DNA of 64,000 bases from Candidatus Marinacidobacterales bacterium (GCA_965224085.1 CBDCYI010000004.1:320001-384000), one strand, 5' to 3'. Shown: positions 35,126-44,431, counted from the first letter of the stretch. Translations and numbers: made by a program. Notes: generated from the letters alone by a model not told the origin.

Positions 35126-36808
35126 TTCCTGTCCAGAAACACCATAACTTGTTGTGTACGAGAGGCCTATCGAAGATGTGGGTATTATACGTTTTCAGTC
35201 GGCACCTCGTAGGCTCGGAAGCGAATGAAAATCTTGGACGAAACGAGAGGCGAATCGTCAGCAATCCATGGCTATAAACGCAGTAAGAGCAATCATTATT
35301 ATCGTAATAGGTGCCTTGCCATTACCAACAGGTTGCAGGTGATGATGGAACTCCATACGTAGGATTTGAAAGAAGGCAATGAGCGCCATGTGCATCGGTC
35401 GAGACCAAAGACTCGTTTCAAGAACGAAATGACGCCTTCGATTCCGCAGCGAAATCGCCGTAGGCGTTGATAGACCCAGGAACTCTTGACCATATCGGTC
35501 ACCGCGAAGTGAGCCTTGGTAAAGGCAACATCTTCAACTCCCTTGCCTTTGATGGCTTCCAAGTTTGCCTTTGAAGAAAACGCGCCATCGTAGGCAACCT
35601 GGCGCGGGGCCCGTTCGTAGAGTTCGACTTGACGGTCGATCATGGTTTCCGCGAGAGTTGAATCGGACGGATTCCCATCCAAGATCACGCAATCCAAAAT
35701 CATCGAGGACGAGCCACCAGTCAAACACACCTTGTGACCGTAGAGAGTCTCGCGCCGGTCTTTGCGAATAATGTCGGTGTGTTCTTCGAAGATCGAAACG
35801 ACCTTTTCCTCCGCAGGCACACGCTCTTCATCAATCACTCTACGCCGAGTTTGGTTGATGACTTTTTCGGTGAGGACGAGAAAGTGCTTAAAATCCGCGG
35901 CGATCTTCTCCGCACTCGCTCGCTTCACCGGCTCGGTCAAGCCGGACTCGTCCAACTGGTCTGCAACGCGTTGAGCGGAGCGATAGGTTTCTTCCGACAC
36001 CTTCAGTAGATCTCGATAGACGCGACGCCTTTGTTCCTTATCCTTCGCGTTTAGAACTCCCAGTCGACGTCTCTTCGCTCGACGCGTTCGATTGCCGAAG
36101 ACCACTACTGTACCCAGCAGTTCGCGAGTTCGGCACATGAGGCGAGTGAGAACTCGGACGCAGTCATAAAGAAGCTCGGAGTCCGTAGGAGAATGAATAT
36201 TCGACTCCACTACCGTTCAGTCCACTCGTACTTTTCTTCCTTTTTCGATCGCGGTCTTCTCGGCAACACTCACCAACTCTCGGTTGATTTTCTCCAGCGT
36301 TTCGAACTTCACGGCTTTGATGTTTGCTGCTAGGGTCGACTTCGACGGGCTCGGCTCTATGATGCCGAGCTGGCAAAACGTCCGATAGCTTCGAGAGTCT
36401 GCCAAGTGAAACGCCAACTCCCGATAGGTGAACTGATTCAGCTGCTTGACCAACAACGCACGGAGAACCTGCTCCGCGCTCATTCCCCCACGACCAACAT
36501 CGCTCCCTGCCGATGGGGTGACCGACCTCAGGTCTTGCAGTACCAGCTCATTGAGCTTAGGATGGGCATCGAGCAGCGATGATATCGTTTCGAGTTCGCG
36601 TGCGTGCTCCAGCTCCAGCCAGGGCTCGCGAAGGCTTGGTTGTGGGTTGATCGTTTTTCGCATTTAGGGCTGGTCTCCTTTGGAGTTAAGTCGTTTAGAA
36701 TCTGCGTTTTTGTCGACTCGATACTAAACGACACTCCCTCAGAAGGCTAGCCCTAAATTTGCGATTACCCCTTTTTTCTCAACCTCTTACACCTGTCAGG
36801 ACGGGTAC
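35125..36808 (-). mobile_element. ISNCY-family IS, copy 3
   Basis: Same ends; TAATTA at 35119-35124 and 36809-36814. Confidence 0.92.
35299..36663 (-). pseudogene. ISNCY transposase with nonsense mutation
   Basis: TGC to TGA at 36217, immediately after the Asp of RVD*TVV. Confidence 0.9.
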
Positions 36809-38584: not shown

Positions 38585-38685
38585 CGCGGCGGGTCCTCAG
38601 GGTCCGGACGAGAATCGGTAGTTAATCCTGCCCGGACTCTTACTTCGTGTCCGGTTCTGAGCATGCTAAATTAGAAGAACGAGAC

Positions 38686-38916
38686 ATGAAGTTTGCTGCA
38701 GGGTTATTGTTTGGCACGGTGGTCGGGGCGGCGGCCGCGATATTGGTCGCGCCGATGTCGGGGCACCGTCTTCGTAACTCGCTCACCAAAGAGGCGAAAA
38801 AGCTCGCCGTGCGGGCGACCGAGCTCGTCCCCAACGAGTGGGCTGAAATGGCGGAAGAGGAAGTCACGCGACAAATTCTCGAAAACGTAACCAACCTCCG
38901 CACCGCCGGCTTGTAG
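38686..38916 (+). CDS. YtxH-domain small membrane protein
   Basis: FAAGLLFG.VVGAAAAILVAP.SG..LR. Confidence 0.8.
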   Translation: MKFAAGLLFGTVVGAAAAILVAPMSGHRLRNSLTKEAKKLAVRATELVPNEWAEMAEEEVTRQILENVTNLRTAGL

Positions 38917-38943: not shown

Positions 38944-40098
38944 TCACTGCCGGAGAACGTCGTCCAGCGTCTCGACGACTTGCTCTAGCTCCTCCTCGGT
39001 GATCACGAGAGGCGGCAGCAAGCGCAGCACTTTCGGGCCGGCCGTGAGCGCAAGCACACCTTGCTCCGCGAGTGCTTCAAGGTAGGGGCGGACCTTTTGC
39101 TTCAGGGCAACGCCTGCCATGAGCCCTCGACCGCGTACGTCGAGGATCGTCTCCGAATCGATCGCACTGAGTCGCTCTTGCAGATGGCGACCTTTCTCGG
39201 CCACCGATTCCAGAAAGCCTTCGCTCTCGAGCTCGTCAAAGACCGTATTGGCGACGGCGCAGGCGAGCGGGTTGCCGCCAAAAGTCGAGCCGTGCATGCC
39301 GACATCGACCCGAACTTTGTCGTTCACGACGGTCGCGCCCATGGGGAAGCCGCCCGCGATCCCTTTGGCGAGACACAAGATGTCGGGCGAGAGTCCGTAG
39401 CGCGAGCAGGCAAACCAGTCACCCGTGCGCCCGAAGCCGGTTTGCACTTCGTCGATCACGAACAGAACACCCCGTTCGCGGCAAAGCTCTTGCGCTCGCC
39501 ATATGAAAGTCGGCTCGGCGACGTGCACCCCGCCTTCGCCCTGCACGAGCTCGAGCAGTAGCATCGAAACGTCGTCCTCGAGCGCGTCCTCGAGGGCGGC
39601 GGTGTCATTGAAAGCGATGAAGCGCGTACCCGGGACCACCGGTGCATAGAGTTCGTGATGCTTGGGGTTGAAGCTCGCGCTCATCGCGCCGAAAGTTCTT
39701 CCATGAAACCCGCGCTTCGTCGCCACGATGCCTGGCCGTCCCGTGCTCGCGCGTGCGAACTTGATGGCGGCCTCGACCGCTTCGGTTCCAGAGTTGCAGA
39801 GAAAGACCCGGTCGAGCCCGTTTGGACAGCGTTCGGCGAGGCGCTCGATGAGTTTCTCTTTGCCGGGATGATAAAACGAGCCGGGGCAGCTCGTGAGCGC
39901 GCGTGCTTGCCGCTCGAGCGCCCCCGCGACACGAGGATGCGCGTGGCCGAGAATCGCCGCGCCGTGCGCGCTCATACAATCGACATATTCGCGGCCCTTG
40001 TCGTCCCAAAGGCGGGCGCCGCGTCCGCGGACGAGGGTGATGCCGCGTTTCCCATAGACGTCGAGCTCGTGGCTCGTGCGGGTGGCGGTTGGGCTCAT
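38944..40098 (-). CDS. lysJ: [LysW]-semialdehyde aminotransferase (class III PLP)
   Basis: NSGTEAVEAA, FHGRT, QGEGG, DEVQTG, AKGIAGG, HGSTFGGNP; LysW operon context. Confidence 0.88.
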   Translation of the reverse strand: MSPTATRTSHELDVYGKRGITLVRGRGARLWDDKGREYVDCMSAHGAAILGHAHPRVAGALERQARALTSCPGSFYHPGKEKLIERLAERCPNGLDRVFLCNSGTEAVEAAIKFARASTGRPGIVATKRGFHGRTFGAMSASFNPKHHELYAPVVPGTRFIAFNDTAALEDALEDDVSMLLLELVQGEGGVHVAEPTFIWRAQELCRERGVLFVIDEVQTGFGRTGDWFACSRYGLSPDILCLAKGIAGGFPMGATVVNDKVRVDVGMHGSTFGGNPLACAVANTVFDELESEGFLESVAEKGRHLQERLSAIDSETILDVRGRGLMAGVALKQKVRPYLEALAEQGVLALTAGPKVLRLLPPLVITEEELEQVVETLDDVLRQ

Positions 40099-40892
40099 CG
40101 GATCACCGTTCCTTTGCCGGAAAGCGTCTCGCGGACCGGGTGCTCGACGCGGCCGTCTCCGATGAAAACAGCTTCGCATCCACTCGACGCCATGGCCGAA
40201 AGCGCCATGAGCTTCCGCCCAAAGCGCCCTCCCGAACTCTCTTGCCACCCTTTGAGCGCGCTGAAGCTCATTTCGTTCACGAGGCTTTGGGGCTCAGTCG
40301 CATCGCGAAGGAGCCCGCGTGCTTCGATGAGCTGCACGACGCGCTTCGCGTAAAGGCTCTTTTGCAAAAGAGCGACGACGGAGTCGTTCTCCGTATTTAT
40401 CGCGTGTCCGTCCTCGTCGAGAATGGGCACCGTCACAACGGGCGTGTAGCCAGCGCTGAGAAGAAGCCCGATGAGCTCGGTGTTGATGACTTTGGGCTTC
40501 CCCGACGCGTCGCGGACGAGGCGCTTACGTCCGTCTTCGATGATCCGGATCCCGCGGTTGCGCCGGCCGCGCACGAGTGCACCGTCGATCCCGCTCAAGC
40601 CGATCGCGTTCACACCGTGTTGCTGGCAAAGACTCACGAAGCGTTTGTTGACGAGCCCGGCATAAGCCATCGTCAGGACGTCGAGCGCGGCCTCGTCGGT
40701 CAGAACACTCTCGACGCCCGAGGCGGACGTGATGGTGCGCGTCGGGCTTCCGAGTCGCGCGGCCAAGTCGTCCCGCGCCGCGTTCGCCCCGTGCACGACG
40801 ACGTACGGGGCCTCGAGCTCACTCAGATCGGAAGCGATACCGGCTAGGTTGATGGTGGCCCCGCCGCCGACCTTCACGATGGTCGCGTCCAT
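40095..40892 (-). CDS. lysZ: [LysW]-aminoadipate/glutamate kinase
   Basis: VKVGG, VVHGA, TSASGVES..TD, GLSGIDG. Confidence 0.9.
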   Translation of the reverse strand: MDATIVKVGGGATINLAGIASDLSELEAPYVVVHGANAARDDLAARLGSPTRTITSASGVESVLTDEAALDVLTMAYAGLVNKRFVSLCQQHGVNAIGLSGIDGALVRGRRNRGIRIIEDGRKRLVRDASGKPKVINTELIGLLLSAGYTPVVTVPILDEDGHAINTENDSVVALLQKSLYAKRVVQLIEARGLLRDATEPQSLVNEMSFSALKGWQESSGGRFGRKLMALSAMASSGCEAVFIGDGRVEHPVRETLSGKGTVIR

Positions 40893-41527
40893 CAGAGGGT
40901 CACCGTCTGCCCGTTCTGCATGGGTTGGTAGTTCTCGTCGAGCGGCTCGGAGCACACCGCGCGGACCGCGTCGTTTCGATAGTGGAGGGTGAAATAGTCT
41001 GGCGACTCGCTGAACCGGCAGCGCGCGTAGATCCGATCGTGGTCCGCGACCGCGACGTTCAACGCGCGGACGTAGTCGCTTTTCGAAAAAAGCAACCGTT
41101 CCGTGGCCGCGATTGCGCGGGACAGGTCGCCGTCATGATGATTCGCGGCGCGATCGATGAGGTGAAACACTTTCTCCGCTCCGATACGTCCGGGGACGCG
41201 AAGCCGAACGCCGCGGAGCTCTCCGTTGAAGACGAAGGCTCGCTCGTCTCGATAAAACGGCATGTTGTTCTCGATCGCGATCCCGGTATCTTTGAAAGCG
41301 CTGCGGGCATGTACGATGAGAAAGCCGACGTCATTGGGTATCTGGAACCTGTCGTCCCAGATTGGCGTCAAGCTCTTATGGCGAGACCAGATCCCCGCCG
41401 CCCGCCACGCCGCGCCCCACCCATGTCCTTGATACTCGACGCTCTCGCGGCACTTCCGGCGAAACGTTGCGAGAACCTCGGCGGTCTCGAAGGGCGCGTC
41501 CGAGCGCATCATCAAAAAGCGGCACAT
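40892..41527 (-). CDS. Class II glutamine amidotransferase-like Ntn hydrolase (EgtC/YafJ/Dug3 family)
   Basis: N-terminal MCR (Cys nucleophile), GHGWG, HARSA, ENNMPF, FNG, SEPLD; stop overlaps the lysZ start. Confidence 0.85.
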   Translation of the reverse strand: MCRFLMMRSDAPFETAEVLATFRRKCRESVEYQGHGWGAAWRAAGIWSRHKSLTPIWDDRFQIPNDVGFLIVHARSAFKDTGIAIENNMPFYRDERAFVFNGELRGVRLRVPGRIGAEKVFHLIDRAANHHDGDLSRAIAATERLLFSKSDYVRALNVAVADHDRIYARCRFSESPDYFTLHYRNDAVRAVCSEPLDENYQPMQNGQTVTL

Positions 41528-41532
41528 TGTCC

Positions 41533-41559
41533 CAAGGGTCTCAAGGGTCTCAAGGGACT
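41533..41559. repeat. 9-bp tandem repeat CAAGGG(T/A)CT x3
   Basis: CAAGGGTCT CAAGGGTCT CAAGGGACT in the gap between lysY and the Ntn hydrolase gene. Confidence 0.85.
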
Positions 41560-41566
41560 AAGTTGC

Positions 41567-42607
41567 TCAAAGAGGATGGAGCCCCGGAAAGGACAGTCCC
41601 GTCGTCTCGTCGAGCCCGAGCATCAAGTTCATGCATTGCACCGCTTGCCCGGCGGAGCCTTTCATGAGGTTGTCGACGGCGCTGATCAAGACGACACGTG
41701 AGCTATCGGGGTCGCGCTCAAAGCCGACATCGCAGAAGTTCGTTCCCGCGAGAAGCTTGGGGTCGGGATAGCGGTAGCTTCCCTGACGCTCTTTGATCAA
41801 GCGCATGAAGGGCTCGTCACGATAAGCGGCGCGGAAAACGCCCCAGAGCTCGCGCTCGCTCATCTCGCGATTGAGGAAGACATGGCTCGTCGCGACGGCG
41901 CCGCGCACCATCTCGACGGAGGTCACCGTGAGATGCACGTCGATGGGGACGCCGTTCTCGAGGGATTGCACGATCTCAGCGGTGTGGCGGTGTCCCGTGG
42001 GCGCGAAGGCGCGGACGGAGCCGCTGCGCTCAGGGTGATGGCTCGTGCTCGTCGCGCGGCGTCCCGCTTCGCTCGAGCCCGCTTTGACTTCGATGACGGT
42101 ACGGTCGAGCTCGACCAGATTCTCGCGATAGAGCGGGTAGAGGCCGAGGATAGAAGCCGTAGCGTTACAGCCGCCGCAGGCGACCCGCCGCGCGTCGCGG
42201 ATTTTGTCGCGATGGATCTCGGGGATGCCATAGACGAACTCGCCGAGCTCCTGCGGTCTAGGGTGGTCTCGCCCGTAATATTTTGCGTAGAGAGACGACT
42301 TCTGCAGTCTAAAATCGGCGCTCGAGTCGATGATGCGCTCGCTGAGCGACGAGAACTGCTCCCAGCGCTCGACCGCTTCGCCGTGAGGCAAGCAGAGAAA
42401 GAGAACGTCGCAAGGCTCGAGGCTCGCGAGCGAAGAGAATTGAAGCGACGTAACACCACGCAGATTCGGGTGCGCCCGGCCCACGTTCTTGCCCGCGAGC
42501 CGCTCGGAGGTAACTTGGACGAGCTCGATTTCGGGATGAGCGAGAAGAAGCCGAACAAGCTCGCCGCCCGCATAGCCCGAGGCACCGACGATGCTCGCGC
42601 GAATCAC
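41567..42607 (-). CDS. lysY: [LysW]-phosphate reductase (ArgC homolog)
   Basis: [48 protein letters not shown]. Confidence 0.92.
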
Positions 42608-43500
42608 GCCGCTCTTCTTTTCTGCAGCTCTTCGACCACGTGCTCGGCCATCGCGAGAGGGATGTCGACCCCGGTTATCTCGATACTGTTTTTGAACTCC
42701 ATCGTGTCGTTTACTTCGTTCACGAGATAGCCGCCGCCGTTGGCGTCGGCGTCGGCGTCCTCAGTCTCGAAAAGATCGATGGCGAGCATACCGCCGCCGA
42801 CAGCGCGCGCAGCTTGGAGCGAGATCGAGGCGAGCTCATCGGAAACTGGACAGTTCGACGCGACCGCGCCGCGCGCGGTGTTCGTGCGCCAATGCGCGCT
42901 CGTTCGCGCGATGGCTGCAATGCAGCGCCCACCCACGACGAAGCTTCGAATGTCGCGGCCACCTTTATCGACGTAGCGCTGCAAGTAATAGATCTGATGT
43001 TGGTAGTTCCCGAGCGCCGCTTTATGCTCGAGCAAGCTCTCCGCTGCATCGGCGTCGTCGGCGCGCGCGATGAGCCGGCCCCACGATCCTATGACCGGCT
43101 TCATCACGACCGGGTAACCCATCGCCTTCGTCGCTTCGAGAGCAGAGTCTTCAGTGAACGCTACCCGCAAATCGGGGTGCGGGACCCCGGCCTCGAGAAG
43201 TGCTAACGACATGCGGAGCTTGTCACCGCAAAGCGCCGCCACCGCCGCTTCGTTGAAGCAGCGAAGGCCGCGTGATTCGAAGAGATAGCGCGCATAGAGC
43301 CCACGCGAGAAACTTACGCTACGCGCCAGCACCGCGTCGTAGGGAAGAGGCGGCGCCGTGCCACCCGGGTCGAACCCGAGCTTGCGATCGTCCAGACAGG
43401 CGACTTCGACGCCGCCGAGGCGGTTGAACGCGTCGAGCAGGAGCTTCTCCTCACGGCGTATCACCGAGTGGAGAAGTGCTACGCGGAGCTGACTACTCAC
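42604..43500 (-). CDS. lysX: LysW-amino acid ligase (RimK-family ATP-grasp)
   Basis: [41 protein letters not shown]. Confidence 0.93.
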
Positions 43501-43657
43501 CCCAGTCTTCCGCCTCGAGCGGTGCTTCTACGAACCGTACCGGCTGAAGAGAAATCACTTCGAGCTCCGAGCTGCATTCACCGCAGTCCAAGAGCTCGCT
43601 GAGCACGGCATTGGTCGGCAAATGGACGCCGCCGCCACAGACAGGACAAGCGTTCAT
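43493..43657 (-). CDS. lysW: Amino-group carrier protein LysW (54 aa; below the ORF-track cutoff)
   Basis: Manual translation [54 protein letters not shown]: two CxxC motifs and C-terminal EDWGE; RBS GGAGGAGG. Confidence 0.96.
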
Positions 43658-43777: not shown

Positions 43778-44431
43778 GTGAAAACGATCTCGGAAGCTGT
43801 GGAGACGTTGATCGAAGGCCATCCGGGACTTCGATTCGGGTTCCACCATCGCCTGCTCAACTTGAGCCAGCTCGCGCGCTTCTTGCGGCCGAGCATCGAG
43901 GCGCAGACGCACAAGGAAGTCACGGAGTCCGCGGTGCTGATGAACCTATCGCGGCTCTCGCGGCGCGCCGCGCCGGCGCCCGGCTCCCATGAAGACGAGC
44001 TCGTTCTCGACAAGGTCAGCGTCCAATCGGGTTTGTGCTCGGCGACCCTTTTCAAAACACCGGAGAGCCATCGTGAGCTGAACCGCGTCTTCCAGCGCAT
44101 CCAATCCAAAAACGGCTTCGTCACCGTCACCGAAGGCATTCGCGAGATTACGATGATCGTCGAGGCCGAGAATCTCGAGCTTCTTCTCGGAGCACTCAGT
44201 GCCGCGCCACGTATCGTGCATCGGAACCTCGCTTCGGTCGGTATGACCTTCGACACGCGCTATTTGAAAGTAAAAGGCATTCTCCATCAGCTTCTGGAGG
44301 AGGTCGCGCTGCAAAACATCAACGTCATCGAAGTGACGTCGACCGCCACCGAGTTCTCTGTCTTCCTAGAGCAGGCCGACGTGCAGCTGGCCTTCGACGC
44401 TATCTTCAACCGCTTCGGCCGACGCGGCTGA
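43778..44431 (+). CDS. ACT-domain protein with N-terminal helical domain (probable regulator)
   Basis: LLNLSQLARFL N-terminus; aspartokinase-like ACT repeats (GIREITMIV; GIL..LLEEVALQNINVIEVTST.TEFSVF); no kinase domain. Confidence 0.78.
   Translation: MKTISEAVETLIEGHPGLRFGFHHRLLNLSQLARFLRPSIEAQTHKEVTESAVLMNLSRLSRRAAPAPGSHEDELVLDKVSVQSGLCSATLFKTPESHRELNRVFQRIQSKNGFVTVTEGIREITMIVEAENLELLLGALSAAPRIVHRNLASVGMTFDTRYLKVKGILHQLLEEVALQNINVIEVTSTATEFSVFLEQADVQLAFDAIFNRFGRRG

Follow-up and report, generated by a model that had tools for sequence, protein, structure and literature searches.

The window analysed here, a 64,000-nucleotide stretch from a Candidatus Marinacidobacterales bacterium (G000:C4:320001-384000), contains an operon for amino-acid biosynthesis on the carrier protein LysW. 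The source genome comprises 6.87 Mb in 12 contigs and is 95% complete. Six minus-strand genes run head to tail from position 43657 to 38944 in the order lysW-lysX-lysY-[Ntn]-lysZ-lysJ, where Ntn stands for the gene of a predicted N-terminal nucleophile hydrolase (Table 1). Pfam and NCBIfam scans named five of the six genes through curated models; the sixth, inserted between lysY and lysZ, is the subject of this report. We propose that its product releases lysine from LysW in place of the M20 peptidase LysK, a reading to which we assign a probability of about three in four.

Table 1. Features of the LysW operon and its surroundings, with positions counted from the first nucleotide of the window
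Feature	Coordinates	Strand	Assignment and model scores
Open reading frame pair	35299..36663	-	adjacent frames of 303 and 148 aa resembling two halves of a transposase gene
YtxH-like gene	38647..38916	+	convergent, bounds the operon, outside the pathway; PF12732 45.8 bits (cut-off 37.5)
lysJ	38944..40098	-	aminotransferase; argD TIGR00707 414 bits (cut-off 410.05)
lysZ	40095..40892	-	[LysW]-aminoadipate kinase; NF010659 232 bits (cut-off 223)
Ntn gene	40892..41527	-	class-II GATase-like Ntn hydrolase, 211 aa, Met1-Cys2; proposed LysW gamma-glutamyl amidohydrolase
lysY-Ntn spacer	41528..41566		39 nt
lysY	41567..42607	-	reductase, ArgC family; argC TIGR01850 384.8 bits (cut-off 233.6)
lysX	42604..43500	-	ATP-grasp ligase; TIGR02144 312.8 bits (cut-off 275.6); RimK and LysX pre-ATP-grasp Pfam domains
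lysW	43493..43657	-	amino-group carrier protein, 54 aa; TIGR01206 58.5 bits (cut-off 53.2); PF21344 47.3 bits (cut-off 27)
Divergent gene	43778..44431	+	217 aa; no family match, weak ACT-domain matches (E 0.05-0.09)

The operon is tightly packed, as an initial annotation of the window had described it. The pairs lysW/lysX and lysX/lysY overlap, the stop codon of the Ntn gene and the ATG start of lysZ share the junction TGATG, and lysZ and lysJ are joined in the same manner by ATGA. The operon ends, as annotated, at a convergent gene of the YtxH-like type. LysW carries a zinc ribbon and terminates in ...EAEDWGE. LysX enzymes load 2-aminoadipate onto the C-terminal Glu of LysW. The lysJ product passed the argD model, while its match to the LysJ model NF042418 reached 391 bits, under the cut-off of 700. 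The reported lack of an M20 peptidase in the window was also confirmed: none of the 32 M20 (PF01546) matches of the genome falls inside it, the nearest lying at C4:305223-306182.

The inserted gene occurs in one copy in the genome, and its protein begins with M-C-R. The protein matched no Pfam family at an expectation value (E) of 1e-3 or better; GATase_4 (PF13230) gave E = 0.0028 and 17.1 bits, under the cut-off of 23. Its sole NCBIfam match was to the EgtC model TIGR03442, where it obtained 34.8 bits (cut-off 218.65) and, in a six-frame search of the genome, 29.5 bits. Neither scan detected an M20 domain, which places the protein outside the LysK family (TIGR01902, NF003367). An AlphaFold2 model, built on an alignment of 25 homologues, reached a predicted local distance difference test score (pLDDT) of 91.9 and a predicted template-modelling score of 0.88. 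In a Foldseek search, its best solved match was EgtC (E 2.4e-11, template-modelling (TM) score 0.74-0.78, identity 18-19%), followed by two uncharacterised class-II amidotransferase-domain proteins and then by GlmS and PurF. A Foldseek probability of 1.00 for EgtC, 1te5, 3mdn, GlmS, and PurF indicates the four-layer alpha-beta-beta-alpha Ntn fold, and the EgtC-like fold foreseen in the initial annotation is thus borne out by the closest known structure. Open frames of 508-562 aa in four relatives, which resembled lysY-Ntn fusions, were rejected as chance frames that run over lysY out of its reading frame, no dedicated search for fused or longer forms having been made.

The position of the gene is conserved far beyond the window. 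Within the window's own family, the order lysX-lysY-Ntn-lysZ-lysJ was found in 12 of 12 loci, with Ntn identities of 57-100%. A scan of one genome per species returned at least 513 genomes encoding a relative of the Ntn protein, and the best 80 loci were examined. According to their labels, they belong to Acidobacteriota, Ignavibacteriota, Calditrichota, Gemmatimonadota, Gamma- and Deltaproteobacteria, Bacteroidota, KSB1, Binatia, Bdellovibrionota, and one metagenome-assembled genome (MAG) labelled Woesearchaeota. The Ntn gene lies inside a lysW cluster in all 80 loci, so that the suggested tie between this subfamily and lysW clusters holds in the wider set as well. The order lysY-Ntn-lysZ is kept in 72 of them, across about ten phyla. 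The other eight retain one neighbour; five lose the second at a contig end, and three (L099, L123, and L147) have room for it, yet it is missing. All six genes occur together in 56/80 loci, and a homocitrate-synthase gene is part of the cluster in 29/80. No M20 match was found in any of the 80 loci, and no other flanking gene family was common to more than 15 of them. The locus in the 1.2-Mb MAG labelled Candidatus Woesearchaeota (L116) carries lysW, homocitrate synthase, homoaconitase, homoisocitrate dehydrogenase, two lysX genes, lysY, Ntn, lysZ, and lysJ. Its archaeal label may be a matter of binning, and the two LysX copies may serve lysine and arginine.

A start codon followed directly by Cys2 is present in 80 of 80 loci, together with Arg3, His73-Ala74-Arg75, Asn101-Gly102, and Gly116. 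Arg75 and Asn101-Gly102 align with the HAR and NG motifs of 3mdn and of an AsnB-like protein of the same genome. In class-II glutamine amidotransferases (GATases), the Asn-Gly pair forms the oxyanion site and the conserved Arg binds the alpha-carboxylate of the substrate. Sequence and model together assign the protein to the class-II amidotransferase-type Ntn hydrolases; its catalytic set is intact, and it fits no curated family.

One active-site position departs from the known enzymes. In a profile alignment with 3mdn (Protein Data Bank), G-S-T-D-S-E stands opposite G-R-I-G-A-E of the family, so that the Asp of the xDxE motif corresponds to Gly116, a residue that is invariant in the 80 loci. 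In a short match, T126-E127 of the T-D-T-E motif in the genome's own GlmS-like protein stands opposite A117-E118, and residue 116 marks the start of a helix in the AlphaFold2 model. The family profile gave short local matches only to the class-II amidotransferases of the genome, and the Asp-to-Gly assignment is based on 3mdn, the GlmS-like match, and the helix start. In GlmS and PurF, this Asp binds glutamine at its free alpha-amino group. A Gly would suit LysW, because the terminal Glu of the carrier has no free alpha-amino group but continues into the peptide chain.

A modelled complex of the Ntn protein with LysW, for which each chain was supplied as an alignment, supports this picture. The complex obtained a score of 0.76, and the best of three controls obtained 0.01. 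In calibration, 58 of 80 solved complexes and 2 of 110 mismatched pairs attained this mark, figures that apply only roughly here since custom alignments were used. Contact agreement between runs was at least 69%, with a partner pLDDT of at least 79. The predicted interface joins Ntn residues 1-2, 75-79, 89, 100-110, 115-117, 119-120, and 151 to LysW residues 47 and 49-54. LysW Trp52 and Gly53 lie over Gly116 and Ala117, and Glu54 is placed beside Gly102 and Glu103. The model places the EDWGE tail of LysW in the Ntn active site and supports the predicted binding. To our knowledge, no structure of such a complex has been solved.

The distribution of the gene among genomes complements that of LysK. 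Three genome samples were searched with Ntn, LysX, and LysK, and counts were taken over lysX-bearing genomes. Among 41 relatives, 26 carry lysX, of which 25 encode Ntn and one LysK. For 24 of the 26, the LysX match exceeded the cut-off; one reached 250.8 bits and one, a split gene, 226.7 bits. A phylum sample of 251 genomes contained 29 with lysX, divided into 15 with Ntn and 14 with LysK; the counts of these two samples include two unpublished genomes, G027 (a relative without lysX) and G242 (one of the 15). In the second phylum, that of G055, 121 genomes were searched and seven carried lysX, five with Ntn and two with LysK, G055 and G090 being known Ntn carriers before the search. No lysX-bearing genome in the three samples encoded both proteins, and none lacked both. 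Three genomes of the phylum sample gave partial evidence only: G117 has a partial Ntn but lacks a LysX match at threshold, G258 has a partial LysK of 143 bits, and G324 has LysK but lacks a LysX match. Ntn was absent from all 15 relatives that lack lysX. The mutual exclusion anticipated in the initial annotation is borne out by these samples, and the routine co-occurrence with lysK that would have spoken against a replacement was not observed in any of them.

Further comparisons agree with this division. No LysK was detected at E <= 1e-30 in 50 genomes with Ntn clusters, whereas the controls Thermus, Deinococcus, Haloferax, and Sulfolobus were positive; the 50 represent the longer loci among the 80 and were picked before any LysK result. 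Conversely, no Ntn gene occurred in LysK-type clusters, either in ten genome loci or in 80 metagenome loci retrieved by a LysK profile. The LysK-type order lysW-lysX-lysY-lysZ-lysJ-lysK was seen in 9 of 9 acidobacterial loci. Moreover, 20 of the 50 Ntn-cluster genomes, including the complete genome of Sulfidibacter corallicola M133, have no LysA (diaminopimelate decarboxylase) at E <= 1e-40, so that the carrier pathway would be the only lysine route there.

The one lysX-bearing relative without Ntn, G012 (96% complete), is also the only one of the 41 relatives with LysK over the cut-off (294 bits; NF003367 378.7 against 363). Its cluster reads lysW-lysX-lysY-lysZ-lysJ, and lysK lies 13 kb beyond, past a recombinase and an IS5 transposase. 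The region (G012:C1:214000-242000; L071 and L072) contains the cluster, followed by genes for a large TolB-like protein, an amidase-signature enzyme, a serine recombinase, an IS5 transposase, and lysK. This arrangement looks like a whole-cluster swap through gene transfer.

The history of the clusters was traced with a LysZ tree of 37 Ntn-type sequences (the window and every second long-match locus) and 36 LysK-type sequences, rooted on the genome's own ArgB as the outgroup. All 37 Ntn-type sequences form one clade with a Shimodaira-Hasegawa-like approximate likelihood-ratio support of 100, nested among the LysK-type sequences, and the stem of the clade measures 1.1 changes per site. A single LysZ clade implies that the replacement happened once. 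In pairwise comparison, Ntn-type LysZ proteins are 34-40% identical to LysK-type LysZ of the same phylum, yet 47-69% identical to one another across other phyla.

Variation at the C terminus of LysW adds an unexpected feature of the Ntn-type clusters. Among 63 LysW proteins from such clusters, 45 end in EDWGE and 18 in EDWGQ, whereas all 25 from LysK-type clusters (10 genome and 15 metagenome loci) end in EDWGE and none in EDWGQ. The association of Gln ends with the Ntn type gave p = 0.002 in Fisher's exact test, in which the rows are not independent. The Gln-ended forms carry a CAG or CAA codon immediately before the stop codon. They were found at L081, L082, L083, L088, L090, L097, L101, L102, L104, L107, L109, L123, L128, L129, L141, L142, L144, and L147, representing Thermoanaerobaculia, Sulfidibacter, Melioribacteraceae, Ignavibacteriales, Calditrichota, Gammaproteobacteria, and one Bacteroidota MAG. 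At least 11 Glu/Gln state changes are required on the Ntn tree and at least nine on the LysY tree (61 tips each). In five Gln-type genomes that were checked, the Gln-ended lysW is the only lysW copy.

Since LysX needs a gamma-carboxyl, a Gln-ended LysW must first be deamidated, and deamidation of Gln is a reaction of glutaminase-type enzymes. Repeated and seemingly free switching between Glu and Gln only where Ntn is present would be expected if the enzyme hydrolyses any gamma-amide on the last residue of LysW. We infer that the same Ntn enzyme also deamidates Gln-ended carriers and would thus have a double role. The LysW of the window ends in Glu, so the release step alone applies here. A comparable variation is described for Pup in PMC8599861, where some actinobacterial lineages encode a C-terminal Gln and others Glu, and where Dop both deamidates Pup and removes it from its targets.

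Elsewhere in the genome, the search for a true lysK, suggested in the initial annotation, yielded no LysK-grade gene. The best match to TIGR01902 reached 90.6 bits against a cut-off of 163.1 and belongs to a 335-aa protein on contig C11, which scored 103.2 against 363 with the [LysW]-lysine hydrolase model (NF003367). A second ArgE/DapE-type protein (387 aa, contig C5) gave a partial LysK-model match of 85 bits. Both are generic ArgE/DapE deacylases of the M20 family.

The pathway genes outside the operon outline two possible lysine routes. A second chain-extension set at C4:~1.62 Mb, apart from leuA and leuC, contains homocitrate-synthase-like, homoaconitase large-subunit, and homoisocitrate-dehydrogenase-like genes. 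Of these, only homoaconitase exceeds its cut-off (hacA_fam, 506.6 against 385.7); the synthase (325.7) and the dehydrogenase (382.7) remain below 413.55 and 409.8, respectively. The set would fit a supply of 2-aminoadipate. Because diaminopimelate decarboxylase is also encoded, lysine may have two routes in this organism. The canonical arginine genes argC, argD, and argB form, together with that for N-acetylornithine carbamoyltransferase, a separate cluster on contig C5 (L067), and ArgJ was not found in the genome. This cluster (G000:C5:1625000-1629300; N-acetylornithine carbamoyltransferase NF003384, 328.9 bits, cut-off 288) adjoins IS5 and IS1634 transposases. The genome also carries egtB at C4:~1522660-1523960, far from the operon (TIGR03440, 563.9 bits, cut-off 360), and the six-frame search found no EgtC besides the weak match to the Ntn gene itself. 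EgtB of some acidobacteria accepts cysteine directly, which makes EgtC dispensable. The presence of egtB without EgtC suggests a putative ergothioneine route that would require no gamma-glutamyl step.

Several additional observations concern the operon and its borders. The 39-nt spacer between lysY and the Ntn start includes a short tandem repeat of the type CCCTTGAGA. In one RNA-type library, a contig of about 92% identity, hence derived from a relative, omits 35 nt of this spacer. In two RNA-type libraries, only 5-7% of sampled words were present. Contigs 90-95% identical to the window, again from relatives, cover most of the operon, and one crosses the lysY-Ntn junction; such contigs are no measure of a transcript or its level. 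Rfam models gave no match between 36000 and 47000 (E <= 0.1), and a lysine riboswitch is accordingly absent. The 217-aa gene divergent from lysW has a homologue at the same place in 15/80 Ntn-type loci and may be an amino-acid-sensing regulator of the operon. Beyond the convergent gene lies the pair of transposase-like frames listed in Table 1.

The proposed reaction cycle would begin with homocitrate synthase, homoaconitase, and homoisocitrate dehydrogenase, whose genes would supply 2-aminoadipate. LysX would join it to the gamma-carboxyl of LysW Glu54, and LysZ, LysY, and LysJ would convert it on the carrier to LysW-gamma-lysine. Removal of Met1 would expose Cys2 of the Ntn enzyme, which would attack the gamma-carbonyl, with departure of lysine and formation of a LysW thioester. 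Asn101 and Gly102 would stabilise the oxyanion, and Arg75 would hold the free alpha-carboxylate of the terminal residue. Water would then resolve the thioester and return LysW-Glu for the next round. In Gln-ended lineages, the cycle would be preceded by a deamidation of the carrier, in which the Ntn enzyme would generate the Glu form that LysX can ligate. A basic stretch at residues 105-119 would meet the acidic tail of LysW. More speculatively, the invariant residues Glu31, Glu103, and Glu174 are candidates for holding the epsilon-amino group of lysine and for rejecting aminoadipate intermediates.

Replacement of LysK by the Ntn enzyme, as put forward in the initial annotation, is supported by synteny, exclusivity, fold, the active-site change, the modelled complex, and the Gln-ended carriers; the gene order, fold, conserved residues, genome distribution, and carrier ends are observed, whereas the substrate, the hydrolysis, and the double role are deduced from them. 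Certain points weigh against it. The complementary pattern reflects one ancestral replacement that was later kept, with whole clusters rather than single genes alternating. Even so, it documents that clusters of the Ntn type persist in many phyla in the absence of LysK and that every sampled lysX-bearing genome encodes one of the two. The equivalence of Asp and Gly116 depends on remote alignments and on the role of that Asp in known enzymes, and the Ntn-LysW complex is a model with approximate calibration. The genome has a diaminopimelate decarboxylase (447.8 bits, cut-off 297.9), so that lysine may not depend on the operon at all. Its 32 M20 matches include the two ArgE/DapE-type deacylases, a promiscuous one of which could be the releasing enzyme. 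This last possibility, in which an M20 deacylase such as the 335-aa protein frees lysine while Ntn has an accessory task (deamidation or removal of dead-end adducts), seems unlikely to us, although the partial LysK-model matches of both proteins speak for it. Thermus LysK is itself described as an ArgE homologue with promiscuous activity in PMC12998189. An arginine route through N-acetylornithine carbamoyltransferase would need such a deacylase in any case. However, a match in the LysK-model range of the 335-aa protein recurs in most of the 41 relatives, including those without lysX and the LysK-bearing G012, and some match at E <= 1e-10 is found in 41 of 41. This M20 type thus occurs with and without lysX and does not track the pathway. 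Deamidation alone would also be insufficient to explain Ntn, which is kept in the 45/63 clusters with a Glu-ended LysW, that of the window included, and no sampled lysX-bearing genome is without both Ntn and LysK.

The long stem of the Ntn-type LysZ clade could signal a changed substrate, and the separate lysA and arginine genes of this genome might render the operon unnecessary for lysine or arginine. Both would fit the alternative raised in the initial annotation, namely that, through an added or altered step, Ntn directs the cluster towards a non-standard amino acid built on the carrier, much as carrier-protein pathways do in secondary metabolism. We consider this very improbable. Homocitrate synthase belongs to the cluster in 29/80 loci, L116 holds a full aminoadipate gene set, and the 20/50 genomes without LysA would depend on the carrier for lysine. 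In addition, no tailoring enzymes are conserved beside the cluster, and Ntn is a stand-alone glutaminase-type domain without a synthase partner here. Scarcely credible, in our judgement, is that Ntn is an ordinary amidohydrolase of a free substrate, for example a glutaminase or an EgtC enzyme using a gamma-glutamyl thiol, and lies in the operon by chance. EgtC is the closest solved fold and the genome encodes EgtB, yet the EgtC model scored far below its cut-off and egtB is located far away. Across phyla, the gene keeps its place between lysY and lysZ, the Asp expected for binding a free alpha-amino group is Gly in every locus examined, and the gene is missing from each relative without lysX. 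Release of lysine from LysW by the Ntn enzyme accordingly remains our preferred reading. We also consider it somewhat probable, with less confidence, that the proteins constitute a new family of Ntn-type LysW gamma-glutamyl amidohydrolases that replaced LysK once, spread with its own lysWXYZJ cluster to at least ten phyla, and permits an inactive, Gln-ended pro-form of the carrier as a counterpart to Pup and Dop.

Comparison with characterised systems helps to define this enzyme. M20 LysK performs the release step in Thermus, Sulfolobus, and other known systems, and the reaction proposed for Ntn is the same, namely hydrolysis of the isopeptide between the C-terminal gamma-carboxyl of LysW and the alpha-amino group of lysine. 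Both genes belong to the same kind of cluster, with lysK placed after lysJ and Ntn between lysY and lysZ. LysK uses a metal centre and has an unrelated fold, whereas Ntn would employ an N-terminal cysteine nucleophile, and the two were never found together in one of the searched genomes. EgtC (PDB 4zfj, 4zfl) shares the Cys2 nucleophile and cleaves a gamma-glutamyl amide to release the amine of an amino acid. Ntn differs from it in its 18-19% identity, the missing association with egt genes, the Gly at the position of the xDxE Asp, and a proposed substrate that is a protein tail rather than a small molecule. With the glutaminase domains of GlmS, PurF, and AsnB, Ntn has in common the fold, the Cys nucleophile, the HAR Arg, and the Asn-Gly pair, but it stands alone without a synthase domain, has a shorter loop after Asn-Gly, and carries Gly for the xDxE Asp.

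Dop offers a functional parallel of a different origin. It removes attachments at the gamma-carboxyl of the C-terminal Glu of a tag and deamidates Gln forms, and the Glu/Gln variation of Pup is paralleled by LysW of the Ntn-type clusters, where the double role is inferred. Dop has a glutamine-synthetase-like fold, involves ATP-derived phosphate, and acts in protein tagging; Ntn would act in amino-acid biosynthesis. The LysW pathway itself is established, with LysK as an ArgE homologue for the last step (PMC12998189). The genome paper on Caldithrix abyssi describes a locus of eight locus tags with LysWXZYJ and Hcs and names neither LysK nor an Ntn gene there (PMC5317091). A literature search found no link between LysW and an amidotransferase-type or Ntn enzyme or a Gln-ended carrier; supplements were outside that search, and the supplement of PMC12998189 might show the LysZ clade. 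Whereas the pathway is known, the likely novelty is that its final enzyme has been replaced by one of an unrelated family, with a probable second role in carrier maturation.

If correct, this would be a clear case of non-orthologous displacement, from a metallopeptidase to a cysteine Ntn hydrolase, on a protein-bound substrate. Annotation pipelines that rely on LysK would call the aminoadipate route incomplete in many genomes of Acidobacteriota, Ignavibacteriota, Calditrichota, Gemmatimonadota, Proteobacteria, and other groups, and recognition of Ntn would close this gap. The Gln-ended carriers predict that both deamidase and release activities reside in the enzyme, in parallel with pupylation. 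The Ntn enzyme could also serve in engineered pathways to cleave gamma-glutamyl isopeptides on carrier proteins.

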